Of a DNA stretch of 64,000 nt, positions 2,950 through 28,713 are shown in pieces (position 1 is the stretch's first letter; each line of letters opens with the position of its first letter). Under the pieces are notes generated by a model, which saw only the letters and a program-made list of their open reading frames with translations, had not been told where the DNA came from and did not search any database. Position numbers and translations under genes: made by a program. This DNA comes from a virus: UHGV virus genome UHGV-1370141. The stretch is one strand, 5' to 3'.

Positions 2950-4255
2950 TTACCCGAAACAGTTGACTTACCAGATTGTTACAAACTTGTCGTGTAATTT
3001 GGACTGTGAGTATTGTTACGAGCGTAAATATCCCCGCAATAACAAAGCAGCAGATATTGTAGATTTTCTTCATGCCTGTTTCGAGCGTGATAAAGATTTA
3101 CCAAACGTAGAAGTCGTCATTGACATTATCGGCGGCGAGCCGTTTATGCAGCCTAAGCTTCTAATGGCCGCTTTCGAAACAGCCGAGCAGTTGTGTGAAG
3201 AACATAAACGCCCGTTTATGTTTAGTATCTCTACTAATGGGACATTATTAGATAGGCCGTTGAACAGGGAAATTATTGAACGTTGGAAGGACAGACTTTC
3301 TATCGGGGTGTCTATTGATGGGTTACCTGAGTCGCACGATAAGTACCGTATTTTTACAACGAGTCGCGAAGGTTCTTACGAGGCCGCTGTACGTGGTTAC
3401 AATTATCTAAAAGAAGTAGGTATCGCGGAGCTTGGGGTTAAAGCGACATTTACTTTGGAAACGCTCCCACATTATGCGGCGGGTATGAAATCCCTAATCG
3501 ATTTGGCTGGAGGTGGAACCATTTCTGGTAACGTAACCTTCGAAGACATTATGCCACGGAGTATGGCTACGTCGATAGCGCTACAAATGATGGATGTAGT
3601 CGATTATTGGGTTGAAAAGGGTTTACACACCAACCCACGTAATACCCTATCACATATCATCCCGGAAGGGTTAGATTTCGACACTATCTGGGAACCGAAC
3701 TGGCGGGATCAGCTACTTTACAACGATACTGTACGTTTAAACCCGGAACGCTTGCGTCCGTTCTGCGGGACATTAACTCACATGACTTGTTTAGGGTTTG
3801 ACAGGAAGATTTTCGGTTGTAACCGTTTCATGTCGACTGTAACGTCACGTTCTGCGGTATTTGAGTTAGTCGGTCGTGAGTTTGTTAGCTTAGACGGTGG
3901 GAAACTGCTGGAAGAGATTCAGACGCAATACACCAACTATCCTGAGACGTGCTTAGGTTGTCCGATGAAACACGCTTGTGGTAGCTGTGCAGCAGCTTCC
4001 TACGAGAATGGGGAAGGGACGTTAGAAGACCGTAAAGCGTATCACGCTGAACGTCGTCAATGTGGTTGGACAACTGCAAAATTAATGGTCGCGGAATACT
4101 GGAAACAGAAGATGGGTACAACATCTGTGAAGGATTTCCACGATAATAGCATGTGTTACTGCCCTCGCTGTGTACGTGAACGTGCCCAAAAAGAAAAACA
4201 ATTGAGAGAAGCCAAAGATGAAGCCAATTCTGATCCACAATATTACGAAGCGTAA
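2933..4255 (+). CDS. radical SAM / SPASM-domain enzyme (440 aa), anSME-like maturase
   Basis: CNLDCEYC radical SAM motif; GGEP motif; C-terminal CLGCPMKHACGSC SPASM-type cluster; overlaps previous gene by 17 nt. Confidence 0.85.
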   Translation: MNQENNYPKQLTYQIVTNLSCNLDCEYCYERKYPRNNKAADIVDFLHACFERDKDLPNVEVVIDIIGGEPFMQPKLLMAAFETAEQLCEEHKRPFMFSISTNGTLLDRPLNREIIERWKDRLSIGVSIDGLPESHDKYRIFTTSREGSYEAAVRGYNYLKEVGIAELGVKATFTLETLPHYAAGMKSLIDLAGGGTISGNVTFEDIMPRSMATSIALQMMDVVDYWVEKGLHTNPRNTLSHIIPEGLDFDTIWEPNWRDQLLYNDTVRLNPERLRPFCGTLTHMTCLGFDRKIFGCNRFMSTVTSRSAVFELVGREFVSLDGGKLLEEIQTQYTNYPETCLGCPMKHACGSCAAASYENGEGTLEDRKAYHAERRQCGWTTAKLMVAEYWKQKMGTTSVKDFHDNSMCYCPRCVRERAQKEKQLREAKDEANSDPQYYEA

Positions 4256-4790
4256 ATTCCGTTTTCTGGAAAAGTTTTTAGAAACTACGAAACTGTTTGG
4301 CTGTTATGTGCAGATTAACGGCGAAGATTTCAATGACGATGTTAAGCGTTTATTAATTCGTCACGGAATCACCGTTGTTATCCCGATGTATTGTACAGAA
4401 CTTACCGAACTTTCTGTGGCCGAAATCGAGAAACAAAATCCAGGCTTTGAACAGCGCGTGCTGGAATTTCCTAAACATAAAATCGTTCTTTTACGCCGCG
4501 CTTTGCAAGAGCCGAGCGTTGAATCTGTTGCTGCTCTAGGTTTATCGTTTCCTGGTGTGACAATTTATGTCACACGAAACCCAGAGTCCACCATCGATGG
4601 TTTTTACGATGAAAGGGAAACTTTTCATAGTTTAGTTTATCCCGAGCTTACAGAAGACGAACGTCAAGGACTACATATTGACTGGGACTCAAATTTTGAT
4701 AGTAAGTTTCGTAAAATCGATTTTGATCTTCTGATCGAGCTGGGTTTAATTAAAGGAGAAGACGAATGCCTGCTCTTGACAAAAGCTTAA
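4218..4790 (+). CDS. hypothetical protein (190 aa)
   Basis: ORF overlapping upstream gene end, consistent with operon; start codon uncertain. Confidence 0.5.
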   Translation: MKPILIHNITKRKFRFLEKFLETTKLFGCYVQINGEDFNDDVKRLLIRHGITVVIPMYCTELTELSVAEIEKQNPGFEQRVLEFPKHKIVLLRRALQEPSVESVAALGLSFPGVTIYVTRNPESTIDGFYDERETFHSLVYPELTEDERQGLHIDWDSNFDSKFRKIDFDLLIELGLIKGEDECLLLTKA

Positions 4791-5440
4791 TAAACGAAGA
4801 TATTCGCGCCAGATTTTTTAGCCGACTTTCCCCAATTGATCGCCACGGAAACTTTTTGGGTCATATAGGTACTGAAGATCGCGGCAGAACGGGTTTTTGT
4901 ACAATGCTTCATTACAAACTACTCGATGGCATGTCCGATGAAGACGCGTTAGATCAAATGCGTAGTTACAATATGTCAGATATTGAAGCAAATTTCACCC
5001 TGAAAAAAGCAAAAGAGTTCATTTCAGATGTATTGGAGATAGATCTGGATGAAATTCGAAGTAACGTTCGTTCAACAGCACGATATATTTATTTAGATGT
5101 TCAAAAGATCATGAAGGCGTTGGAGTCGCGTTACGAAGCAGAACGTTACGAACCAATTCAGCTGAATGATCGTCATTTTCAGGCTGATGCAATCTCCCGA
5201 CAAATGTTAGGGCAATATATCCAATCTGAAACTGCGCCAGAATATTGGTTGGATACCGCCAATACGCGTTTAGAACCCTTTACATTAGAAGAATGTAAGG
5301 AACTATTGTCCGAGATCGTAAAACGTGATCAGAAACTGCATGGACAAATGACCGCGCAGAAAAAAGAGCTTCGCCTCTTAGCTGAACAGCGTGACTACGA
5401 CACTATCCGTGCACTTGCACTGGAAATGGGATTAGAATAA
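4766..5440 (+). CDS. hypothetical protein (224 aa)
   Basis: ORF overlapping previous gene, followed by strong terminator. Confidence 0.55.
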   Translation: MPALDKSLINEDIRARFFSRLSPIDRHGNFLGHIGTEDRGRTGFCTMLHYKLLDGMSDEDALDQMRSYNMSDIEANFTLKKAKEFISDVLEIDLDEIRSNVRSTARYIYLDVQKIMKALESRYEAERYEPIQLNDRHFQADAISRQMLGQYIQSETAPEYWLDTANTRLEPFTLEECKELLSEIVKRDQKLHGQMTAQKKELRLLAEQRDYDTIRALALEMGLE

Positions 5441-5444
5441 AAAA

Positions 5445-5487
5445 TACCTACCTCCGTAAAGGAGGTAGGTAAACTTATTATTTTTTT
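5445..5487. terminator. bidirectional rho-independent terminator between convergent gene blocks
   Basis: Perfect 11-bp inverted repeat tacctacctcc / ggaggtaggta with 5-nt loop, T-run downstream and A-run upstream. Confidence 0.75.
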
Positions 5488-5509
5488 GTTATAGTAGTTG
5501 ACTTAGCGG

Positions 5510-6040
5510 TTAAGCAGTAAAACCGTCCAATTCACCGTTGGTGGTGGCCAGGTCAATACGATTATCGACAACCTTCGGTGTAATTACGAAAGTTGCCATT
5601 ACACCCGGTTTATAACGGAGGTTCTGTTCAGTAACGGTGCACGTCACGGTACGCAGAGTGACGTTTTCATGTTCGTCTTTCTGGTCTTCGGTGCTGTACA
5701 CAACGTCACCTGGCGCGATAGCGTCGTCAGGTTTTACTTTGTTGATGTAATATTGTAACCAAGCGCGGAGTTCGTTTTCTTGAACCCAGCGAGACAGATC
5801 ATCAGTTAGTTCAATCCGTCCTACAACACCTGGCTCCAGACGATCGTAATGCAGTTCGATTGCACCTTTGAAATTCTCAGAACCTGGTAGTGCAGTCATG
5901 GTAACTTTGGTATTCTTACTTTCGCCTTCCAGCGCAGTAGGGAGACCAAAGGACACTTCTTTATCAGTAATCTGATGTGGTAGCTCAGTGTTAGCAGCAT
6001 TATAAAGCGCGACCAACATCATCTGGTTAGTAGCGGCCAT
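5510..6040 (-). CDS. hypothetical protein (176 aa), paralog of 6112..6684
   Basis: ORF; C-terminus ...GELDGFTA shared with neighbour. Confidence 0.6.
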   Translation of the reverse strand: MAATNQMMLVALYNAANTELPHQITDKEVSFGLPTALEGESKNTKVTMTALPGSENFKGAIELHYDRLEPGVVGRIELTDDLSRWVQENELRAWLQYYINKVKPDDAIAPGDVVYSTEDQKDEHENVTLRTVTCTVTEQNLRYKPGVMATFVITPKVVDNRIDLATTNGELDGFTA

Positions 6041-6111
6041 TATCTTAGGTCCTTAATAGAACAAGTTAGAGAAATATCGGGGGAGGTCACCCCCCCCCCG
6101 ATTTAACTTAC

Positions 6112-6684
6112 TTAGCCACCGACACCCGGCGCAGTGAAGCCATCAAGTTCACCTTCCAGACCGCCCAGTGCTACCTTCTCAGGAGCTGGGTTGGAATAAG
6201 TGAAAGTAGCAATAGTACCCGCCAGGAATTTAATGTGGCCATCGTTTACTTTGACAGTGTAAACTTTAGCACCGCTGTCGCCTTCGGATTTAACGATAGT
6301 GAGTTCGCTCTCTGCAAACGCGTCATCGACATAACCTTTAGTAACCATTTCTTTGTTCAGTTTGGTTACAATGGCAGAGTTTTCCAGATCGAGACTACCA
6401 GCTTGTTCGTAAGCTTTAGCACCGATCAGGTCTTGGGATGCCAGACGGATATAATGGAATTCTTTCTCGCCTTTGAAGTTCTGGCTTTCTGCCTTGGCGG
6501 TCAGTGTAATTTTGGTGTTACGACCAGCGTCTCCGCTGTGCGCTTCGACAGCACCAAAATCGACATCACCAACCGTCAGATTAGAAGCGGTTGCAGAGTT
6601 TTTAGCAATTACAGCTTCGATGAGCTGTTGTTTGAAGGCTTTAGCCATCTTTTTTACCTCGTAAGTGGTAGGGGTGGATTGCAT
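6112..6684 (-). CDS. hypothetical protein (190 aa), paralog of 5510..6040
   Basis: ORF; similar length and C-terminal GELDGFTA motif. Confidence 0.6.
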   Translation of the reverse strand: MQSTPTTYEVKKMAKAFKQQLIEAVIAKNSATASNLTVGDVDFGAVEAHSGDAGRNTKITLTAKAESQNFKGEKEFHYIRLASQDLIGAKAYEQAGSLDLENSAIVTKLNKEMVTKGYVDDAFAESELTIVKSEGDSGAKVYTVKVNDGHIKFLAGTIATFTYSNPAPEKVALGGLEGELDGFTAPGVGG

Positions 6685-6786
6685 AAGAAAGTTATTTTAG
6701 ACATTTCCTAAAATATAGATATGACGGTTGGCAGTAGGCGCTAACCTGAAAAAATAATTTTTCTTAATTTTAATAAGGGTGAGTTT

Positions 6787-7266
6787 ATGCTAAAACGCAT
6801 TCTCGTGGTCGTTGCTTTTGTAATGACGTTGGCAGGTTGTGCTATTCAGCCGAACGCAGAAGGTCAGTTCTCCACCGTACCTGTTGACCAACATGATATG
6901 GTCATTTACACCTGTACAGGTGCTTCTCAAGAATTCGTCGATTTTAAACCGGTACCGTCTAGCCTAAAACTGATGCCCCTTTCGGTGTTAGTCATGGATA
7001 CAGGGGCGAATTGGGTCGCTACATGGGACGAAGGTAAAATCGAATCTCCGCAACTTTATAAAGACCTGTTAGGTAAGGTGGACGGTAACTTAAACGTTGT
7101 TACCGGTGAGCGCTATTACCGTGTAAACGGGTTACTGTCAAAAACTCCAACGTTTGCGTATTCTACCATCAACTACAAAACAGGTGAAGGTAAAGGTGTA
7201 ACGTTCTTCAGATGTCACGAAGGTAGCATTCCGGATACCGGCACTATGCTGCACCCGGTAGAATAA
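6787..7266 (+). CDS. putative lipoprotein (159 aa)
   Basis: N-terminal signal peptide ending in lipobox LAGC; lone plus-strand gene in minus-strand block; own terminator. Confidence 0.6.
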   Translation: MLKRILVVVAFVMTLAGCAIQPNAEGQFSTVPVDQHDMVIYTCTGASQEFVDFKPVPSSLKLMPLSVLVMDTGANWVATWDEGKIESPQLYKDLLGKVDGNLNVVTGERYYRVNGLLSKTPTFAYSTINYKTGEGKGVTFFRCHEGSIPDTGTMLHPVE

Positions 7267-7270
7267 TAAA

Positions 7271-7306
7271 TACCCTCCTGCTTAGCAGGAGGGTAGGTTT
7301 ATTTTG
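7271..7306 (+). terminator. rho-independent terminator
   Basis: Inverted repeat accctcctgc / gcaggagggt followed by tttatttt. Confidence 0.7.
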
Positions 7307-17636: not shown

Positions 17637-18257
17637 TTATTTCATTCCGTTCTGAGAAAGTGTTGTCCCTGCAAGATGCTTAATAACGATCTTGACAGGC
17701 AAATTACTATTCTCGTACTGTACTTCGGTTTCAGACAAATCGGTGATATCGACAACTTTAGAAGGTACTTTCGCTAAGACAACCCGAATGGTGTGGGTTA
17801 TCGTACTGGCTGTGGTCTTTGTATTACTAATGTAGAAGTACGCATCAATAATACCGCCGTCTTCTGCCAGATAAACCAATTTATTTTCCAACAGACACTG
17901 GGTATAAATTGACACTCCAGATAATTGCGAAATCCCCAGTCTATTATTAACGTCAACTGTTGTTTTGCAGATTACCGCACCACCTGTCAACGTTTTTTCT
18001 ACCACCATATTTCCCGATAAGGTTTTTGCATCCATTTTTGGTACAATCGGATGAGTGCCGTCAACAAACAACCCATCGCTGTTAGACTTAAGGATGTTAT
18101 TCGCCGACGGACTCACTGTAACCTCGCCACCCCCTAATTTCTCAATCGGGAGTTGGTATTCAGTTTGTTCCTTAGACGCTAAGACTACTACACCCGTGAT
18201 GTCTTCTGAAAGTGTCTCCAGTTCATGAATGCGCACCTTTCCTACCAGTTCAGCCAT
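17637..18257 (-). CDS. short tail fibre protein with shared N-terminal anchor domain (206 aa)
   Basis: N-terminus MAELVGKVRIHELETL... homologous to N-termini of 20032..24513 and 27597..28058. Confidence 0.55.
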   Translation of the reverse strand: MAELVGKVRIHELETLSEDITGVVVLASKEQTEYQLPIEKLGGGEVTVSPSANNILKSNSDGLFVDGTHPIVPKMDAKTLSGNMVVEKTLTGGAVICKTTVDVNNRLGISQLSGVSIYTQCLLENKLVYLAEDGGIIDAYFYISNTKTTASTITHTIRVVLAKVPSKVVDITDLSETEVQYENSNLPVKIVIKHLAGTTLSQNGMK

Positions 18258-18870: not shown

Positions 18871-19377
18871 TTAACTGATTTTGAAATCTCTTAACGTACC
18901 AGTTGATCTCATCACGTTTTGAAAAGCAGTGCTGATGTTATTAGTCCAGTAGTAATGCTGTCCGTTAATAACCTGCTGATAGGTCAGTGCGCAAGTGTTA
19001 CCGCCTAGATTTACAGTGATGTTAGAGGCCCTGCCGCCTTGTAAGTAAACCGCTAAACTAGGCCTTGCGTTGCCAACTACCGTCGTTAACTGTAATTCGA
19101 TACCTACTAAAGTTCCCACCCCGCAGTTACCCGCGTTTTGAATGGTCCCCTGATTTTTCTGGTTTAACGGCCAATTTGGTCCTACTGCGCCCCATTTCTT
19201 ACCTAAAGAATCTCTATATGCGGCAGTTGCAATTTTACAGCCCATAGATCTTCCCACCATTTGACTCATCATAAAAGGTCTACTCAATCCTAATTTACTA
19301 CCCGCAGCGCTCATCCACTGTTCGCCCGTTTCATTCCTAGCTGAAGATCCGACCCATCCTGACGCTACCCCCCCCAT
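18871..19377 (-). CDS. glycine-rich adhesin-like protein (168 aa)
   Basis: N-terminus GWVGSSARNETGEQWMS... paralogous to 19394..20032; located just downstream of long tail fibre gene. Confidence 0.5.
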   Translation of the reverse strand: MGGVASGWVGSSARNETGEQWMSAAGSKLGLSRPFMMSQMVGRSMGCKIATAAYRDSLGKKWGAVGPNWPLNQKNQGTIQNAGNCGVGTLVGIELQLTTVVGNARPSLAVYLQGGRASNITVNLGGNTCALTYQQVINGQHYYWTNNISTAFQNVMRSTGTLRDFKIS

Positions 19378-19393: not shown

Positions 19394-20032
19394 TTAAACA
19401 CGTGAACCGTATATTGCACCTACTGCGTCCCATCTTGGCGCATTACCAGTAACAGCTTTACCAGCTGCTCCGCCGTTATATTCTGTACCGTTACCATGAG
19501 TATTACATCTTCCTCCAGCAGCACCGACATTACCACCCGAACCGCCTGTATATGCACTAAGAGACCCCTCACCAACAGATCCTCTACCAGGAGCGGAAAT
19601 AGTACCAGCAGCTGCACCGGAACTCATATGAGAGGAAGACCCACCAGCACCGCCTGGCGAGTTAGAACCACCGTTGCCTCCTCTGCCGTATACTGTAACC
19701 CCAGGATTGATGATGAGTGTAATATACGAATTTGGAAGATTGCTAGGGAATTCTAAACAAGGAACCCCGCTACTATAAGACACTAAATCCCCTGTAATGG
19801 TCACAACGACAGCAGTAGAGCCTAAAGAACGTAAATAGTTAATAAGAGTATCCTTATTATAGCTATGGTTAGCACCAATAGAATAATGGACCTCTTTTGA
19901 TTTTCCCGCCAATTGCGACATCCAGCCTGGAACCGGCACACCAAGTGTGCGCATCGCGCCAGACATCCATTCGTTACCAGCTTCAGCTTTTGCTGAAGAA
20001 CCAATCCAACCACCTACGCCGACAACTGCCAC
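19394..20032 (-). CDS. glycine-rich adhesin-like protein (212 aa)
   Basis: Gly-rich segments (GGNGGSNSPGGAGGSS...) separating other sequence, reminiscent of T2-type gp38 adhesins. Confidence 0.5.
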   Translation of the reverse strand: MAVVGVGGWIGSSAKAEAGNEWMSGAMRTLGVPVPGWMSQLAGKSKEVHYSIGANHSYNKDTLINYLRSLGSTAVVVTITGDLVSYSSGVPCLEFPSNLPNSYITLIINPGVTVYGRGGNGGSNSPGGAGGSSSHMSSGAAAGTISAPGRGSVGEGSLSAYTGGSGGNVGAAGGRCNTHGNGTEYNGGAAGKAVTGNAPRWDAVGAIYGSRV

Positions 20033-23000
20033 TAGGATCTCCCTTTGATTTCGTTAACCTCTTGACGCAACGCTTTCATACCCTCTACTAACAGCGCAAT
20101 AACGCCATTGTAGTTTAGACGTAAACGTTTTTCGCCTGAAATGGCATCATCATCCTCAGACACAAGTTCAGGTAACGCTTCTAATGCGTCTTGAGCAATT
20201 AGACCTACAGAAGTTTGCCAACCGTCATCCGGATGCTGAATTTCGTACAAATAACCAGTTAGTAACTCTAACCGATCCAAAGCCTTATCCAGCTTCACCA
20301 GATTACGTTTGTTACGACGGTCAGAACGAATCTGTACGTCGTTAAACGAACCGTTACCGCTGCCAGTAACGTTATGACCAAAGGTTACTTGGCCATTAGC
20401 GTTATTAAAATACAACGGACGTAGTCCGTTCCAGGAACCCGTTGCAGCTTGTCCGGCGTCGGTTACTAAGAAATAGGTATTGGCACCATCGTTACGTAAC
20501 ATAAAGCCGTAGTTGCCGTAAGCGATTCGAAAATCAGGGTACTTAGTGACCAATTTACCGTTAACGGTTAAATCGCCACCTATAGTACCGCCCCCTGACG
20601 GTAACGCACCGATGTCACCAGCGTTAGGTTTGTTGTGTGTGCTGTAAATCAGATAGACGGTACCGTCTGTTAGTCCTGCGGGTTTATTAGCCGTATAGCT
20701 TGGCGATGTGTGAATCGTTACGTTGGCATTACTAGTGTAGTCCCACTGAATATTAACACCGGTGGCGTAATTACCTATTTCAACATAAATATCGTAAGTG
20801 TCACCAGATGTATTCACCCATGCAAAATTAGTGAAGCCGACTGAGGTCAGTCGCCATAACGCACCAGTAATACCTTTTGGATTCCCATTTCCTGCACGCA
20901 GAACCAGCTCAGAGATACCTGCTTGATGCGGGGAACCAACGTTAAACCCTGCACCACCAATCAGGCTTATGTAAACCACGGAACTGGCTTGTGGCATCGT
21001 TACAGTTGCTAGTTTGAACCATCCGGCACCACCATTAAAAGACACAGTTGTTGTGTTCGCGGCACCAACATTTCGTAAGAATTTTCTCTTATCTGGAATA
21101 TCGGCACCGTTCTGTTTCTTCTGCAATGACCCACCGGCCAATTCTACAGTTTGGCCAAGATTTAAACTTTCAGCCGTTATTTCGATGTTTTTAGTGCCGT
21201 CAAACGCAATACCGTTGATGGTTCTTGCAGTTTGCAACTTTGTTGCAGTGGCCGCGTTTCCGGTGGTCGACTGATTACCCGTTTGGTTTACTCCAGGAAG
21301 ATTAACGTCTTTCGTCCCATCGAAAACCACACCACCGATCCTACGTCCTGTTTGTAACTTGGTAGCGGTTGCTGCATTACCTGTCGTATTCTGGTTGCCT
21401 TGCTGGTTAACCCCCGGTAAATTGATATCCCCAGTACCGTCAAAGGTAACGCCGCCGATTCTGCGAGCGGTTTTCAGTTTCGTCGCGGTAGCGGCGTTGC
21501 CGGTAGTATCTTGATTACCTGTGGTATTTACGCCAGGAATACTGTCACGGGCAGTATAAACTTGTGCCCAATCTGACCACGGCGCATCTGCCGTATCACG
21601 TCGACTACGAATATAAACTGGCGCGTGCGCACCACTCGTGCCCGACCAACCAATTAACAACTCGCCTTCGCCTAGCGCAGCAGAACCACCCAAATGCAGT
21701 AAGTTACCATAAGCGGTCGGATAACCGTTATTGTAAACTTCGTACATCTGAATACCAGGCGTACCTTTGTTTGAACCAGTCAGTGCAGTAACACGTCCAC
21801 GTCCTACCAACGTGTTGATATTGATGTCTCTAGACCCATCAAATTTCACACCGTTGATGTTTCGAGCCGTTTGTAATTTGGTTGCGGTTCCCGCGTTCCC
21901 AGAGGTGTTTTGATTACCTTGTTGGTTAACACCTGGGAGGTTAACGTCGCCGCTACCGTCGAAGGCGACCCCACCAATTCTACGTGCCGTCTTTAATTTA
22001 GTGGCGGTTGAAGCATTGCCTGTTAACTCACCTGCTAACCCTTTTGCAAAGGTCTGTTTTTCTGCCCAGGTGTGCGCTGCGTTCAATACAGGCATCTGGC
22101 GTGGCGTAATTGTTCGACTACCTTTCTCACCAGCGATACGAACAGCAAAGAAGCGATAGTTGGCAGTAGACACCGTACTACGCCAAACCAACATGCTCCG
22201 ACCGGTGCCGGTGTCATCAGACGGCCCTACAAGGATGTTAACTAAGTTACCGTCAATCACACCCCAATCCATTCCCGCAGGAATATTTTTCATGGTGTTC
22301 AACGGTGACGTTAACATCTGACCGGGAACGAAGTCGTAGGTTTGCCAGTCTAACGGGTCAACCTTAGCAGCTACACCACCAATGCCTAAAACTAACGGAA
22401 GTGAATACGAGGTGAAAACCTCTCGCCACCCACTCCAAATGTTACCCGTACGGATACGTTGGAATTTACGACCTTTAGTTTCTCTACCCGTGCCGTATGT
22501 GGTATAATTCTGTTCGACCCCTGTACCGTCTAAGCGTAAGGTAACTTCACAAACGCCTACCACGGTTTCGCTAGAAGAACCGATAAGTGGACCGTTAGTT
22601 GCCTCACCAGTGACACTGAAACGACCCGGTTTAACGAGATCGTTAAAATTGGCTTTAAAGAAAGCACCGTCAGTCTGATAACCAACCTGAATCCAATCTT
22701 CCCATTGTGGGTTTGATGAATCCCACGTTGCAGTCAAACCACGGACATACATTGTGCCACGACGCGTAGTGTATCGCTGCAACCGTCCGAAAAGACCACC
22801 TTCCATTACTTCTAGTACGCCTTGCGCGTTACCGCCTTCTTCAGGGTAATGCCGGTCGAACACCGCTAACGAACTGGACGAGTTCCGCCAGTTACCCATA
22901 TGCTCAGCGCCACCCAGAGAGTTCAAGTCTATAGAGGTAGACAGTGGGCGAACACCAGTGGTTACCATTCTCCACGGTGACCAGGGTCCATTAGTTCCGT

Positions 23001-24513
23001 TCCACACACCTGACAACATACGGTTGTACACGTTACCATTACGACAGGTAAAACGTTGCGCGCCACTGTAGTTGCCCGCTTTATACACTTCCAGATAACC
23101 GACTGCACCGTCTTCTGGGAAGTGTTTTGCCATCGACGCATTGGTTGATGTCGACTTAGACCACGTTCCTGTGTAATTAGCATCTGGAGCAAATGTGTTA
23201 ATATCAGCATCTACAGGCATTTCGCCACGGAAACGCAGGTAGGTATCAGGAGATAGGCCGATGTTGCGAGCAAAAGTTTCTTTATCTGGGATATCAGCGC
23301 CGTTAGAGTTTTTCTGTAACGCACCATTCGCTTTATCGACGGTAGTTTTCAAACCCAGGAAGTTAATGATATCCGCCGTCGACCCTTTCGCTAACAAATC
23401 GCGCGCAGTCGAGGTGAAATCCGCTAATCCCACCCGATTACTACCGGTAAAGTAAGGGAGTTTGTTTGCAGCGGTGGTGACTGCGGCAATCGCTGTCAGT
23501 AACGGACTTAACGGCTGTTTACCCGCGAGTTGGTTCGTTATCGTTGTCGCAAAGTTAGGATCGTTTCCTAACGCGGCTGCAATTTCTGATAACGTATCTA
23601 ACGTCTCGGGTGAAGAGTCCACTAATTCAGCAATCGCTTGCCGTACCCATGCCGTCGTTGAGACTGTCGTGTCGTTAGAATCCGCAGCAGGAGTCGGAGC
23701 TTTTACTACGCCAGTAAACGTCGGCGAGTGACGGTTTGCTTTTAACTGCAAATCATCATTTAACTGCTTAACCGTTGACGGTGTAGCCGCTTCCGTAACC
23801 GAGTCACTGGTTAAGGTATTATTAAGTTTAACGATACCTTTACTGGACGTTGTTGCATCAACGTTACCTTTTGCAGCGATTTCCTCTGCACGCTTAGCGG
23901 CTGCCTCAGAACGCGTTGCCGCATTCTCTGCGGTTTCTTTGTCTGAGGTAACTTGCGTTGCTGTAGCCTCTACAGAGGCTTTTGACGACTCTACTGACGC
24001 GACAGCTTCGTTAACTGCCGTAAGCGACTGTTCTACTTGACCGGCTTGTGTGGCAACAGTTTCTGCTTTCTTCGTAACGGTAGTCACCGCTTGTGTGACG
24101 TTGGCCTCGCTTGCCGCTACCGCTTGTGCTTTCTCATTAACGGACACAACCTGGGTATCTACCGCCGTTTTCGCGGCTAACACTTCAGTGTGTTTTGTAC
24201 CGACCTCAGTTGCTTTTTCGGTTACAGTTTGCGCTTGTTGAGCAACCGTAGCCGCAACGGTGTCAGTTTGTTGTTTTGCTGTTTCTGCTAAATTCTTTGC
24301 TTGTGTAGCCTGAGTTGCAGCTTCTTGTGATTGTGTTGCTGCTGCTTGTGCATCAGACACCGCATTACGCACGGTGTCAATATCTGCAACGATCTCACGG
24401 ACTGGTAACTTATAATCTTTCTCATCTTTGGAGAAAAGTAAAACACCTTCACCGATATCCCCGGTGTATGGACGTAAGTCGTGTAAACGAATTTTCTTTA
24501 CCGCTTTAGCCAT
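20032..24513 (-). CDS. long tail fibre protein (1493 aa) with C-terminal S74-type intramolecular chaperone domain
   Basis: N-terminal anchor domain; multiple repeats ...GNAATATKLQTARRIGGVxFDGTxDxNLPGVNQ...; C-terminus ...SDRRNKRNLVKLDKALDRLELLTGYLYEIQ... typical of self-cleaving chaperone. Confidence 0.85.
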   Translation of the reverse strand: MAKAVKKIRLHDLRPYTGDIGEGVLLFSKDEKDYKLPVREIVADIDTVRNAVSDAQAAATQSQEAATQATQAKNLAETAKQQTDTVAATVAQQAQTVTEKATEVGTKHTEVLAAKTAVDTQVVSVNEKAQAVAASEANVTQAVTTVTKKAETVATQAGQVEQSLTAVNEAVASVESSKASVEATATQVTSDKETAENAATRSEAAAKRAEEIAAKGNVDATTSSKGIVKLNNTLTSDSVTEAATPSTVKQLNDDLQLKANRHSPTFTGVVKAPTPAADSNDTTVSTTAWVRQAIAELVDSSPETLDTLSEIAAALGNDPNFATTITNQLAGKQPLSPLLTAIAAVTTAANKLPYFTGSNRVGLADFTSTARDLLAKGSTADIINFLGLKTTVDKANGALQKNSNGADIPDKETFARNIGLSPDTYLRFRGEMPVDADINTFAPDANYTGTWSKSTSTNASMAKHFPEDGAVGYLEVYKAGNYSGAQRFTCRNGNVYNRMLSGVWNGTNGPWSPWRMVTTGVRPLSTSIDLNSLGGAEHMGNWRNSSSSLAVFDRHYPEEGGNAQGVLEVMEGGLFGRLQRYTTRRGTMYVRGLTATWDSSNPQWEDWIQVGYQTDGAFFKANFNDLVKPGRFSVTGEATNGPLIGSSSETVVGVCEVTLRLDGTGVEQNYTTYGTGRETKGRKFQRIRTGNIWSGWREVFTSYSLPLVLGIGGVAAKVDPLDWQTYDFVPGQMLTSPLNTMKNIPAGMDWGVIDGNLVNILVGPSDDTGTGRSMLVWRSTVSTANYRFFAVRIAGEKGSRTITPRQMPVLNAAHTWAEKQTFAKGLAGELTGNASTATKLKTARRIGGVAFDGSGDVNLPGVNQQGNQNTSGNAGTATKLQTARNINGVKFDGSRDININTLVGRGRVTALTGSNKGTPGIQMYEVYNNGYPTAYGNLLHLGGSAALGEGELLIGWSGTSGAHAPVYIRSRRDTADAPWSDWAQVYTARDSIPGVNTTGNQDTTGNAATATKLKTARRIGGVTFDGTGDINLPGVNQQGNQNTTGNAATATKLQTGRRIGGVVFDGTKDVNLPGVNQTGNQSTTGNAATATKLQTARTINGIAFDGTKNIEITAESLNLGQTVELAGGSLQKKQNGADIPDKRKFLRNVGAANTTTVSFNGGAGWFKLATVTMPQASSVVYISLIGGAGFNVGSPHQAGISELVLRAGNGNPKGITGALWRLTSVGFTNFAWVNTSGDTYDIYVEIGNYATGVNIQWDYTSNANVTIHTSPSYTANKPAGLTDGTVYLIYSTHNKPNAGDIGALPSGGGTIGGDLTVNGKLVTKYPDFRIAYGNYGFMLRNDGANTYFLVTDAGQAATGSWNGLRPLYFNNANGQVTFGHNVTGSGNGSFNDVQIRSDRRNKRNLVKLDKALDRLELLTGYLYEIQHPDDGWQTSVGLIAQDALEALPELVSEDDDAISGEKRLRLNYNGVIALLVEGMKALRQEVNEIKGRS

Positions 24514-24547
24514 GATATTTAATTCTCTATCGGGAGCTAAAAGATCT

Positions 24548-24569
24548 GGGGGAGGTAAGCACCTCCCCC
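24548..24569. terminator. stem-loop between spike and fibre genes
   Basis: Perfect inverted repeat gggggaggt / acctccccc with aagc loop. Confidence 0.55.
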
Positions 24570-24590
24570 AACATTTTTATAAGCGGGTTA

Positions 24591-27500
24591 TTATTGCTCC
24601 GGTTTTAATGGAACATCTTCTACCGTTAACGTAACGTCTAAGGCCGCTTGACTGTGGTCAGTAATCGCTAAGTCACGATAAATATTAGCATTGGCTCCGT
24701 AGGTTTTATAAGTAACGTAGAGACCTAACGCACGTAGCACTTCCCCAGTGTAGAACCCATAAGCCATTCCGTTATCAGAAGACTCTCGAGCGGCTGGAGA
24801 CCACGCTCCATTAATCGGCTTATTCGGAATTGAGGTAATCGTAAACCCTTCACCTAACTCCTTAATTGCCGCATTAACCACTTTATCGTAGTTCGGATTC
24901 GTTGCACCGGCGAGTAATGCCCAGCAACACCCTGCTAACCACAACCCACACATATGTGCGGTGAAGTCGTTTTCCACCCAAACAGCTTTATCCGGTGCTG
25001 TAGGGAACTCGTTAGGAGTGTGGCCATTAAACCGATCCACAAACCCACCTAGCCAATTCACCCAGTTGTCAATATAGCTTGTTAACGCCTCGGGAACGTC
25101 TTTACCTCGCAGTTTCAGTTCGTACCAACAGCGACATGCGGCATGAAACGCACGAGGCTGATACCCTGCCCAAGGATGGTCATCACCCCAATGGAACGTC
25201 GTCCAGGTATCCGCTTCTCCGTAGCTGTAGTTGTCCCAACGGTTCCAGATATAAGCTGCACAACCAGGTCCTAATTCCCCAATTTGCTGTTGGTAAGCCA
25301 ACTGCGAATCGTACAGGAATTGAATCTGGTTATCTAACCACAGCTTATACCGGTCGTCTTTGTGGATACTGTACATAAACGGATACTGATAACCCGGATA
25401 AGGCATCCCGTGCCAAGCACCTAACTGTTCCGAACCTTCTAAGTAGCTGTTCGTGAACGGTATCGTACCCGGACAGTACGCTAACGAATCCAATCGGTAA
25501 TCTACAATCGTACAATCACCCACTTTTGCATCAAACTCTGCACCACCGCGTAAGGCAATACGGAAGGTTAAAATATAACCATCGTCTTTATTAAAGACCG
25601 GTGGAACATCGTTAACACAATAGTAAGCAAAGTGCGCATGGTCAACCGTAGAGTCAGGAAGAATCGTGACCTGATCCACCTTATCGAAATTCGGTGCTGA
25701 AGGTTTAGGGTCAGCGTCTGTGTGGTCTGGCTGATAACCGGAAAGTGTGGCTTCATCTGGATTCAACGTTACCTGACGCCATTCGTTGTTTGTGTTGGGT
25801 AACATCCACCACCAACGCCAGTTATCACTGTCGACTAAACGCAAGTTAAAATCTGCGTCTGCACGGTAAACAATAGAAACGGGTTTTACCTTCTCTTCAG
25901 CGGTTAACCAAAACCCGATAATAAACCCGGCACTGTCATCAGGAAATTCAGCTTCTACCACGGTACCCGCGCGACCATCGTAAATGCTATCCTCAAAACG
26001 TTCTTCCCATGTACAACCACCATAGTCCGAACACGCACGGGCTTCAGCTATCAGGTAGTCTCCCCCTTCTGGGGTGGTAATACGGGAAAGTTGGCCTAAG
26101 TCAATATCGTACTGTTTAACGGTATTTACCGTAGACCGAGGTAAGGTTAAACCGTACCAGTTTACTTCCTCGGTATCAGCTTTCGCAGGGTTAATGTTCA
26201 CCATCGCTTTACAGTAGACAGGATCGCCATTCTTACAAACTCCACCGTACGTGACACGAAGTTTGGAGTCTTTGTTAATCCTGAATCGAACCGCTTGCTG
26301 CTCCATAAAGTGTTGTACCGCTTCAGGCGCATGGATGGTAATGTCTCCATTCTCATCACGGCCGTAGGTAACACTTACGGTGTCCGGGTAATTGAAGTCG
26401 TACGAAATGCCATCCGTAAACGGTGTTTCCGCAGCGGTAGAACGACGGAAGAATTTATCTACCGCATCAATATACGTGTACTCGTGTGCTGTGTAGAAAG
26501 CACAGTCTAACGCTTGTTTGTATTTCTCTTCACCTGTTATACGCCACAGCAAATAACAGGCGTCGATAAACCACAGTTCAGCATCAGCGGCGTTACCGTA
26601 TTGGTTTTTCGACCCTAAGAACGGTGTGTGGACCGGACGGTTGTGCCACGGCTCATTACGTTTAAATTCGTAACCGCCGTGTTCGACGGGAAGTTTTACC
26701 GCGTAGTTAATTAAATAGACACCGTTTAACTGTGTGTCTTTTAACTGTACGGTACCTTTATCAGCGTCTGCTAATCCCGTCTCAATAATTTCACTATCCT
26801 GGATTTTGTTACCCGTCCAGGCAATTATCCAGTCAACGTCGTATTTAGGAGCTTTTGTTGCAGACCCGCCCCAAAGCGGGGTGTAACCTGTAGCATTATT
26901 TAGCAGTGTTGGCCAATCGACCCAAGCGATGCTTTCGTAAGGCTTATCAGGATTAGTAATAACGTGAGTTAAAACGTCTTCCCAATTAATCGACCCTTCT
27001 TTGTCTTCCTTGATAATCTGTACATCTGCGTTAATCGCGGCCCAGGCAGGGTGGCCACGATGTGCAAACGTACAGATATCCAAATACTCTCCCCAGAAAG
27101 GTGCACCGTGCGGTATCTTACATTGGCCATTTGTAAACCTTACAGGAACACATTTATACCCGCCGTTGGTAGGTTCCGTAGGGTGAATAGGATAGTGTGC
27201 TAATACCGGTTCTTTCCCGTTTACTAACCAGTTACAAATCCGACGCTGGGGTGTTGTCGGAATAGGCTGTCCGGCGTAGAAGTACGTGTTGTACGCATCC
27301 CAGGCGTGTTTCGCAGCATCTAACCATCTTTCGTCTTTTGTTGCGATATACATGTGGCAATAACCGATAATGTGTAACGACTGACCCTCGGTCGTTGCGT
27401 CACCATTCGGTTGGTATTCCGCCATGGTATCAGCGATGAAATGACGGTTATTCGACAGAACACCTTCTTCGTTTTGAATATAGTGTTCGTTGTGCGCGTC

Positions 27501-27596
27501 GTGAGTCGTTCCCGTATTCCGGGTAACGAAGGATTGGTGTCCGTAAGCTAACGATAACGCGTAGCTAATCGCGTGACGCTGAAAATGTTTTCTCAT
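24591..27596 (-). CDS. tail spike-like protein, possible polysaccharide-degrading receptor-binding protein (1001 aa)
   Basis: Very long ORF in fibre module; Trp/Tyr-rich C-terminal region; directly preceded in-frame by anchor-domain ORF. Confidence 0.55.
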   Translation of the reverse strand: MRKHFQRHAISYALSLAYGHQSFVTRNTGTTHDAHNEHYIQNEEGVLSNNRHFIADTMAEYQPNGDATTEGQSLHIIGYCHMYIATKDERWLDAAKHAWDAYNTYFYAGQPIPTTPQRRICNWLVNGKEPVLAHYPIHPTEPTNGGYKCVPVRFTNGQCKIPHGAPFWGEYLDICTFAHRGHPAWAAINADVQIIKEDKEGSINWEDVLTHVITNPDKPYESIAWVDWPTLLNNATGYTPLWGGSATKAPKYDVDWIIAWTGNKIQDSEIIETGLADADKGTVQLKDTQLNGVYLINYAVKLPVEHGGYEFKRNEPWHNRPVHTPFLGSKNQYGNAADAELWFIDACYLLWRITGEEKYKQALDCAFYTAHEYTYIDAVDKFFRRSTAAETPFTDGISYDFNYPDTVSVTYGRDENGDITIHAPEAVQHFMEQQAVRFRINKDSKLRVTYGGVCKNGDPVYCKAMVNINPAKADTEEVNWYGLTLPRSTVNTVKQYDIDLGQLSRITTPEGGDYLIAEARACSDYGGCTWEERFEDSIYDGRAGTVVEAEFPDDSAGFIIGFWLTAEEKVKPVSIVYRADADFNLRLVDSDNWRWWWMLPNTNNEWRQVTLNPDEATLSGYQPDHTDADPKPSAPNFDKVDQVTILPDSTVDHAHFAYYCVNDVPPVFNKDDGYILTFRIALRGGAEFDAKVGDCTIVDYRLDSLAYCPGTIPFTNSYLEGSEQLGAWHGMPYPGYQYPFMYSIHKDDRYKLWLDNQIQFLYDSQLAYQQQIGELGPGCAAYIWNRWDNYSYGEADTWTTFHWGDDHPWAGYQPRAFHAACRCWYELKLRGKDVPEALTSYIDNWVNWLGGFVDRFNGHTPNEFPTAPDKAVWVENDFTAHMCGLWLAGCCWALLAGATNPNYDKVVNAAIKELGEGFTITSIPNKPINGAWSPAARESSDNGMAYGFYTGEVLRALGLYVTYKTYGANANIYRDLAITDHSQAALDVTLTVEDVPLKPEQ

Positions 27597-28058
27597 TTAG
27601 TAACCCGCTGCAAGAAGAGAACCTTTCCAGGTGGCACCCCCATCAAGGGTATAAAGCGACAGAGTGTCTTCCGCATTTGCCGCGTAGGATAAAACCGGTT
27701 GTGCACCGTGAGGCCATTTAACGTTTTCAGGCCAGGTTACTTTATTCGCCCCTGTTCCTTGCTTAATCGTTAGCATTACTTCGAAACGGGTATTTTCTGC
27801 AACGTTGGTAAGGGCTGCGAACGTCACTGTAGTGTTAGGATCGTTTAACACCAGAATAATGTCAGTGCTGGTATTGAAATCCAACGTGGCGGCATTATTC
27901 GAACCGTTAACCGTGGTGACTGTCGCAACCGGGGCTAACTTATCAACATCAATTTTATATTCTTTATTGTCTTTGCTATACAGCAGTACCCCGCCTTGGG
28001 GTGTGCCTGCGTAGCTTTCGAGCTCATGGAGTCTCGTCTTCTTCAGTGCTGTCGCCAT
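27597..28058 (-). CDS. tail fibre N-terminal anchor-domain protein (154 aa from MATALKK start)
   Basis: MATALKKTRLHELESYAG... homologous to N-termini of 20032..24513 and 17637..18257; stop TAA is immediately followed in frame by ATG of 24591..27596. Confidence 0.55.
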   Translation of the reverse strand: MATALKKTRLHELESYAGTPQGGVLLYSKDNKEYKIDVDKLAPVATVTTVNGSNNAATLDFNTSTDIILVLNDPNTTVTFAALTNVAENTRFEVMLTIKQGTGANKVTWPENVKWPHGAQPVLSYAANAEDTLSLYTLDGGATWKGSLLAAGY

Positions 28059-28587
28059 CTGGAACCTCAAATGTAAGAACGGCATCGTCACCAATACAGA
28101 AGATTGCATCTTCTTCGTTTGCTAATGCCCGTTCGGTTGTATCAAACAACGTCACCATAAACGCGTTCATCCACGCAGGAGAATCGTCGGCAACGTTAAC
28201 GGAAATGGGATCGTTACCTAAAGTGATATCTGAAGCACGTAAATCCTCGGGTTGTAAGTTCGTTCCGCAGAATTCATTTACAACACTAAGAATGTCACGA
28301 ACGTTGTCTTCAGTACCGTCTAACGAAATCAGAATGGGTTCATACGTTAATACTTCATCTGCGTCGAGTCTGTCGTAGTAAACCACAACAGACGCGCCAT
28401 CCGGTTTTCTGATTTTACTGATTTCGGTAATGGTGTTACGACGCGAAGTTGTTGGGGATGGGTTTGTTACAGTTCCGCTAATACGGATTTCGTTTAGTGT
28501 AAGCTGTAACCCGTTATCATGATTGATTAAAGCGACCACTAGCTCTGCTGAGGTCAGACTCAAATCAGGTACGTATGGTGTGGCCAC
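28024..28587 (-). CDS. hypothetical fibre-associated protein (187 aa), paralog of 18257..18772
   Basis: MATPYVPDLSLTSAELVVALINHD... ; overlaps start of 27597..28058. Confidence 0.5.
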   Translation of the reverse strand: MATPYVPDLSLTSAELVVALINHDNGLQLTLNEIRISGTVTNPSPTTSRRNTITEISKIRKPDGASVVVYYDRLDADEVLTYEPILISLDGTEDNVRDILSVVNEFCGTNLQPEDLRASDITLGNDPISVNVADDSPAWMNAFMVTLFDTTERALANEEDAIFCIGDDAVLTFEVPDGDSTEEDETP

Positions 28588-28713
28588 TTAACCCTCCGAG
28601 ATCAAAAAAAATAAAACACCTACCGCCCATAGAATCGGGCGGTAGGAGACTATTCTGTAGTTAAAAATCAAGAACGATTAGTGATTTTTTTCGGAAGATT
28701 TCGATAGAATTTT

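Follow-up and report, generated by a model that had tools for sequence, protein, structure and literature searches.

The 64,000-nucleotide (nt) stretch of the virus genome UHGV-1370141 analyzed here, referred to as the window, encodes on its minus strand a 153-residue and a 1001-residue tail protein whose open reading frames (ORFs) share a reading frame and are separated by a single TAA stop codon. Our analysis indicates that these are very probably two separate genes, co-transcribed and translationally coupled, that encode a two-protein receptor-binding module of an SPN3US-like jumbo phage. The small protein would serve as an adaptor that presents the large, glycosidase-like protein on the virion. 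The single stop is the normal, conserved boundary between two tail genes. An original prediction for this locus had offered programmed readthrough, a recent nonsense mutation, a sequencing error or simply two tightly coupled genes as explanations. It is the last of these that the comparison with relatives supports, as related phages with two separate genes were found throughout.

Across the adaptor/enzyme junction the minus strand reads ...GGT TAC TAA ATG AGA AAA CAT..., confirming the predicted TAA at 27597..27599 directly followed, in the same frame, by the ATG of the ORF at 24591..27596. The adaptor gene occupies 27597..28058 (153 amino acids (aa) plus TAA) and the enzyme gene 24591..27596 (1001 aa), both on the minus strand. 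Within the junction sequence TAAATG (27594..27599, minus strand), the adaptor stop lies at 27599..27597 and the enzyme ATG at 27596..27594, leaving a spacer of 0 nt. Although a purely mechanical call extends the upstream ORF to 28109 (170 aa), the correct start is 28058, because all close homologs are 153 aa long and begin MAT.../MAI..., and because GAGG lies a few bases before the ATG.

Stops and starts are generally packed tightly in this genome, and roughly one in three such junctions is expected to be in frame by chance. By a crude greedy ORF call, 26 of the 75 same-strand neighbor pairs in the window lie within −4 to +12 nt of each other, and five of these 26 are in frame. The in-frame TAA/ATG adjacency does not exceed chance expectation. 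Folded as RNA, the junction showed no structure above that of shuffled sequences (z −0.49), and no promoter or terminator signal was found at the adaptor/enzyme junction. A G-rich Gly codon (GCGGGT) sits 6 nt upstream of the junction, where it could act as a weak Shine–Dalgarno sequence.

The contigs of homologs 97, 84, 69 and 68% identical to the small protein were fetched and their junctions read, together with those of the isolate phages SPN3US, Proteus phage 7, pEa_SNUABM_29 and Asesino and of more distant pairs. Three independent assemblies from different samples (the 97% group; ENA ERZ27241592, Logan SRR25533030 and SRR13378612) have the same in-frame TAC TAA ATG junction as the window. 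The 84% group reads TAC TAG ATG, also in frame, with one stop swapped for another. The 68% group, which includes a contig in an Enterobacter ludwigii assembly, reads TAC TAA cg ATG and is out of frame. Among the isolates, SPN3US and Proteus phage 7 (TAA gcc ATG) and pEa_SNUABM_29 (TAA acc ATG) are in frame, and Asesino (TGA g ATG) is out of frame. The genes overlap by 1 nt (TAATG or TGATG) in the phi92-like phage Bas62, Vibrio phage G1, a Spongiibacter prophage and four metagenomic contigs, and by 8 nt in Yersinia phage ISAO8 and a Pseudomonas P2-like prophage. A megablast search of the region against phage genomes returned only four partial matches, at ~70–72% identity, which places the phage itself outside that collection.

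The spacing in this survey takes six values (overlaps of 8 or 1 nt and gaps of 0, 1, 2 or 3 nt), and because it varies the frame relation is not conserved among relatives. A stop is present at the boundary in every relative, with TAA, TAG and TGA all occurring. An ATG is found at the homologous position in every lineage except one member of the 69% group (L013, a contig of Logan ERR14141103), and the G-rich Gly codons found right ahead of the stop could act as its Shine–Dalgarno sequence in the relatives. In L013 the small ORF is followed by three consecutive in-frame stops (TAA TGA TGA), and the body of the large ORF lies out of frame with it, in the +1 frame.

The start of the large gene in L013 (6460..6490 of that contig) reads TAA TG ATG AGA AAA AAT TTC; this ATG is in a closed frame, and the body of the gene is read in a different one. 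With a −1 slip on A_AAA_AAT, MMRKKFQRHAISY would be restored. Slippage could explain the frame break, as could an assembly indel in a homopolymer run or a true frameshift mutation combined with a TTG or ATG start farther upstream.

Because the boundary stop is always present, with all three stop codons and six spacings, both an error and a recent nonsense mutation are excluded as its origin. A sequencing or assembly error that made a false stop could appeal only to the in-frame arrangement. The junction is identical in three independent assemblies and the same architecture is present in isolate genomes, and we regard an error as extremely improbable.

Programmed stop-codon readthrough would yield a covalent anchor–enzyme fusion beside the two separate products. 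This explanation could draw on the shared frame, which is found with a 0-nt spacer in the clade of the window and with a 3-nt spacer in Seoulvirus. Readthrough requires that the frame be conserved, and there is no such conservation because the spacing takes six values, with 1- and 2-nt gaps and 1- and 8-nt overlaps in close and distant relatives. L013 has three successive in-frame stops, the downstream start of the large gene is kept as ATG in all other lineages, and the junction lacks a stimulatory RNA structure. The stop used here is TAA, which is the least leaky stop in enterobacteria, and the relatives use all three stops. The A1 protein of phage Q-beta, a programmed readthrough extension, resembles the window in having an in-frame ORF after a single stop. 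Unlike A1, the downstream ORF of the window has its own conserved start, its frame is not conserved in relatives and the intervening stop is TAA. Since relatives differ in the frame relation of the two genes, we reject programmed readthrough and consider it very unlikely to operate here.

The two proteins are direct orthologs of SPN3US gp123 and gp124 (SPN3US_0123 and SPN3US_0124, ‘tail-associated protein’), with 46 and 71% aa identity, respectively. SPN3US and other Seoulvirus and Erskinevirus jumbo phages have the same order of a DUF7941 gene, the small gene and the large gene. The SPN3US pair also has the same C-terminal ...G-Y-stop and N-terminal M-R-K start as the window pair and differs in its 3-nt spacer, versus 0 in the window. 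In mass spectrometry of SPN3US virions (Ali et al. 2017, PMC5694885, Supplementary Table 1), gp123 (16.5 kDa) peaks in gel slice 1, which holds the lowest masses, and gp124 (113.7 kDa) peaks in slice 9. The mass-adjusted spectral counts of the two are similar (0.42 for gp123 and 0.64 for gp124), and neither was flagged as a head protein (PMC5694885). The SPN3US orthologs are separate virion proteins. The SPN3US junction is in frame too, and even so gp123 migrates at the size of the small protein alone, a further point against readthrough, although a fusion would co-migrate with gp124 in these slices. As refuting evidence for a fused or split product, the original prediction had named separate genes in related phages and the lack of a junction peptide from virions. 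The relatives do have separate genes and the SPN3US orthologs lie in separate slices; a junction peptide was not specifically searched for.

The match of the small protein to phrog_9017, a family of 159 positions, is full-length (E 1.6e-38), and its homologs at 97, 84, 69 and 68% identity are all 153 aa long. A word-indexed search found 11 homologs only; an exhaustive search found 3508 homologous clusters among 1.84 billion representatives. Among the best 150 of these 3508 homologs, the domain lies within 10 residues of the C-terminus in 112 of 117 single-domain proteins. The small protein is thus a complete stand-alone tail protein, and polypeptides normally end after its domain.

A recent nonsense mutation that split a single anchor-plus-spike gene is hardly credible in this light. 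The idea is suggested by the neighboring long fiber, which has the same anchor covalently, and by one distant lineage in which the enzyme is fused to another anchor, Tail_P2_I (P0092). Against it stand the full-length match of the small protein to its family, the C-terminal position of its domain, and the presence of the boundary stop in all lineages, jumbo phages as well as podoviruses and prophages, with the downstream ATG kept in all of them except L013. In addition, the small-protein domain is absent from all 120 best homologs of the large protein. We reject the mutation on these grounds: the boundary exists in every lineage, and the small domain normally ends its polypeptide.

The adaptor is composed of two parts. 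The anchor peptide (aa 1–48; 27915..28058, minus strand) is common to the N-termini of the long fiber and of a third fiber-like protein. It is 52% identical to aa 1–48 of the long fiber (E 9e-12), and the similarity is confined to that stretch. The remaining ~105 aa form a separate domain that is absent from the long fiber. In the AlphaFold2 model of the monomer, aa 1–44 are disordered (pLDDT <50) and aa 45–153 form a confident β-sandwich (pLDDT 80–90). This C-terminal β-sandwich domain (aa ~45–153; 27600..27923, minus strand), contains the motif KQGTGANKVTWP..VKWP.G..PVLSY and is proposed to be the platform on which the enzyme docks. The description of the small ORF as an ‘anchor-domain’ ORF therefore captured the anchor peptide and missed the β-sandwich. 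Likewise, the long fiber does share the anchor and joins it to its distal part in one polypeptide, as predicted, with the likeness limited to aa 1–48.

Searches of all PDB chains with the sequence of either protein and with a profile of the small protein gave nothing meaningful, returning only chance matches to RagA (E 0.03). The label ‘T4gp10-like’ was considered for the small domain and not adopted, as sequence and profile comparison with T4 gp10 and gp9 was negative; comparison with the N-terminal region of CBA120 TSP4 (TSP4-N) gave only a modest fold match. Three long proteins (P0133–P0135, 1389–2036 aa) contain four to five tandem copies of the β-sandwich in their C-terminal half. The β-sandwich domain of the adaptor can thus be a repeated building block of long fibers.

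The 1001-aa protein (phrog_2871) is a tail-associated, glycosidase-like protein. Its predicted fold is a complete (α/α)6 barrel, like that of GH8/GH76/GH105-like glycoside hydrolases, interrupted by β-sandwich domains that resemble carbohydrate-binding modules, and the idea that this ORF encodes a β-helix spike was not borne out. The Pfam GH76 match is below threshold (18.3 bits versus a cut-off of 25.9). Of its 120 best homologs, 116 begin at the same N-terminus, in which G19, H20, F23, N27 and T28 are nearly invariant, and none carries the domain of the small protein or any anchor like it. Two clusters of the family carry an N-terminal Tail_P2_I domain of ~177 aa; covalent anchoring therefore occurs in this enzyme family, with a different anchor. 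One such protein (P0092, 1097 aa) is encoded at 4001..7294 of a P2-like element (ENA ERZ1755730), where the glycosidase is fused to the Tail_P2_I baseplate domain. No small adaptor gene lies beside this fusion, a covalent counterpart of the two-gene arrangement.

In 11 of the 12 lineages examined, a protein with the small domain is encoded immediately upstream of the large-family gene. These lineages span jumbo myoviruses, phi92-like and FelixO1-like myoviruses, T7-like podoviruses, a P2-like prophage and the Spongiibacter prophage, and across them the N-terminal part is all that changes in the small protein. For the Autographiviridae, this part is the N-terminal domain of the T7 tail fiber (PF03906). 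In the podovirus stretch that was fetched, between the internal virion proteins and the holin and terminase genes, the adaptor and enzyme genes are the only ones annotated as tail fiber or tail protein. In phi92 (gp140 and gp141; Bas62_0024 and Bas62_0025 in the Justusliebigvirus Bas62), the small protein is 39% identical over aa 39–152 and the large protein 41% identical over its full length; the junction is TAATG, and the N-terminal anchor differs from that of the window. A review table enters phi92 gp141 as a glycosidase. In a 2026 cryo-EM study of phi92, gp140 was only a candidate fiber protein, which could not be placed in the density.

The best reading of this pattern, by analogy with the truncated-first-RBP and adapter systems of KP34-like phages and of K1-5 and SP6, is an adaptor that is anchored in the baseplate or tail and presents an anchor-less enzyme. 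In KP34virus group A, as in the gp37 adapter of K1-5, K1E and SP6, the first protein is short and anchored, with a C-terminal docking domain and no enzyme, and the second, enzyme-bearing protein is anchor-less with a conserved N-terminus (PMC6872550). The window pair shares these features with the adapter or anchor-branch systems (K1-5 gp37, KP34 group A, G7C): a virion-anchor module lies at the N-terminus of the first protein (aa 1–48 here, PF03906 in the podoviruses), and the N-terminus of the anchor-less second protein is conserved. The podovirus members ISAO8 gp38/gp39 and Vibrio G1 gp22/gp21 carry the same PF03906 anchor as the Klebsiella podovirus systems. There are also differences. The KP34 and K1-5 docking domain is defined by homology to domains 2 and 3 of T4 gp10, whereas the window domain has no sequence or profile similarity to gp10. 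The window enzyme is an (α/α)6 barrel and not a β-helix. The genes of window-type pairs are always adjacent, whereas in KP34 five to eight genes lie between them.

We propose the following model for the window pair. The first ~45 residues of the adaptor would form a baseplate-anchor peptide, and the enzyme would most likely reach the virion by docking non-covalently onto the β-sandwich of the adaptor, from where it would act on a polysaccharide of the host surface. The abutting TAA and ATG would couple termination to reinitiation and so favor matched synthesis of both partners, and the shared reading frame would be incidental. We infer the physical docking, its stoichiometry, the enzymatic activity and its substrate; binding of the enzyme to the adaptor is supported by the adjacency of the genes in 11 of 12 lineages and by the presence of both orthologs in SPN3US virions. 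A more specific version of the model, on which we are evenly divided, is that the β-sandwich is a dedicated docking module for this (α/α)6 glycosidase and that adaptor and enzyme form a portable cassette that travels among jumbo, phi92-like, FelixO1-like and T7-like phages as well as P2-like and other prophages, exchanging only the short N-terminal anchor. If true, this would be a K1-5/KP34-type adapter system whose docking domain has no sequence relationship to T4 gp10.

Several points weigh against the docking model or its details. The physical interaction of adaptor and enzyme is one that we infer. The N-terminal helix of the enzyme (aa 2–26) is well packed in the model and is not obviously a free docking peptide. 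The terminal domain of the adaptor also ends many long fiber-like proteins and may have a role other than docking. Finally, a minor fusion of ~130 kDa would fall in SPN3US slice 9, as gp124 does; a trace of covalent fusion by readthrough in the in-frame lineages is far less likely than the portable-cassette version of the model.

In an alternative view, the genes would still be separate and coupled, but the small protein would be a short fiber or knob in its own right with a binding role of its own, and the enzyme would join the virion via another partner, such as the DUF7941 protein or a baseplate protein. A distal binding knob would be expected to end long fiber-like proteins and to occur in tandem, as this β-sandwich does; the N-terminal helix of the enzyme seems to be built into the fold; and one lineage has the enzyme fused to Tail_P2_I without an adaptor-type domain. 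However, the two genes remain strictly adjacent in 11 of 12 lineages while their surroundings change, and the Autographiviridae enzyme has no other obvious attachment than the small protein with its T7-fiber anchor. We consider this alternative unlikely, though less so than readthrough, and favor docking of the enzyme onto the adaptor.

The adaptor and enzyme genes belong to a three-gene unit that is bracketed by terminator-like hairpins (28646..28619 and 24571..24546). The upstream hairpin (28619..28646, minus strand) has an 11-bp stem with eight G–C pairs and a T-rich tail and lies just upstream of the unit. The first gene (28024..28587, minus strand) encodes a 187-aa DUF7941 virion structural protein (PF25613, E 7.5e-20; phrog_2935), the counterpart of SPN3US gp122; it overlaps the start of the adaptor gene by 35 nt and occupies the same position in all relatives. 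The downstream hairpin (24546..24571, minus strand), also with an 11-bp stem, directly follows the enzyme gene and precedes the long-fiber gene.

The long tail fiber (20032..24513, minus strand; 1493 aa), which carries the anchor peptide covalently at its N-terminus, lies outside this cassette and contains Phage_fiber_2, Gp34_trimer and Peptidase_S74 domains. It follows the cassette in all close relatives (L007–L015); SPN3US and Asesino lack it at that place and have small hypothetical genes there instead. The long fiber, its anchor copy included, has the appearance of an insertion confined to the clade of the window. A third protein (17637..18257, minus strand; 206 aa) begins with the same anchor peptide, MAELVGKVRIHELETL..., and is 41% identical to the adaptor over aa 1–41. 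The three tail proteins with this common N-terminal anchor may compete for one baseplate site or occupy it jointly.

Just downstream of the long fiber, the ORFs at 19394..20032 and 18871..19377 (minus strand) have similar N-termini; the second is grouped with the first only by an N-terminal resemblance seen by eye. For the first, the segment 19392–19652 is 87–92% identical in nucleotide sequence to gp38 adhesin/fiber-assembly genes of RB49-like T-even phages, which suggests a recent horizontal transfer of gp38-type sequence into an SPN3US-like jumbo phage. At its end the long fiber also has a Peptidase_S74 intramolecular chaperone, which is unusual alongside a gp38-type adhesin.

For annotation, the two genes should be kept as they are, with no merging and no flag for a pseudogene or recoding site. 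The two-gene arrangement is already annotated in public relatives and is supported by virion proteomics, and the current understanding of phage receptor-binding systems is unchanged. The biological value of the pair is modest: it illustrates how a phage may mount an anchor-less polysaccharide-degrading enzyme through a small adaptor. A cassette that has spread over very different tail types by swapping its anchor would be useful for host-range engineering.

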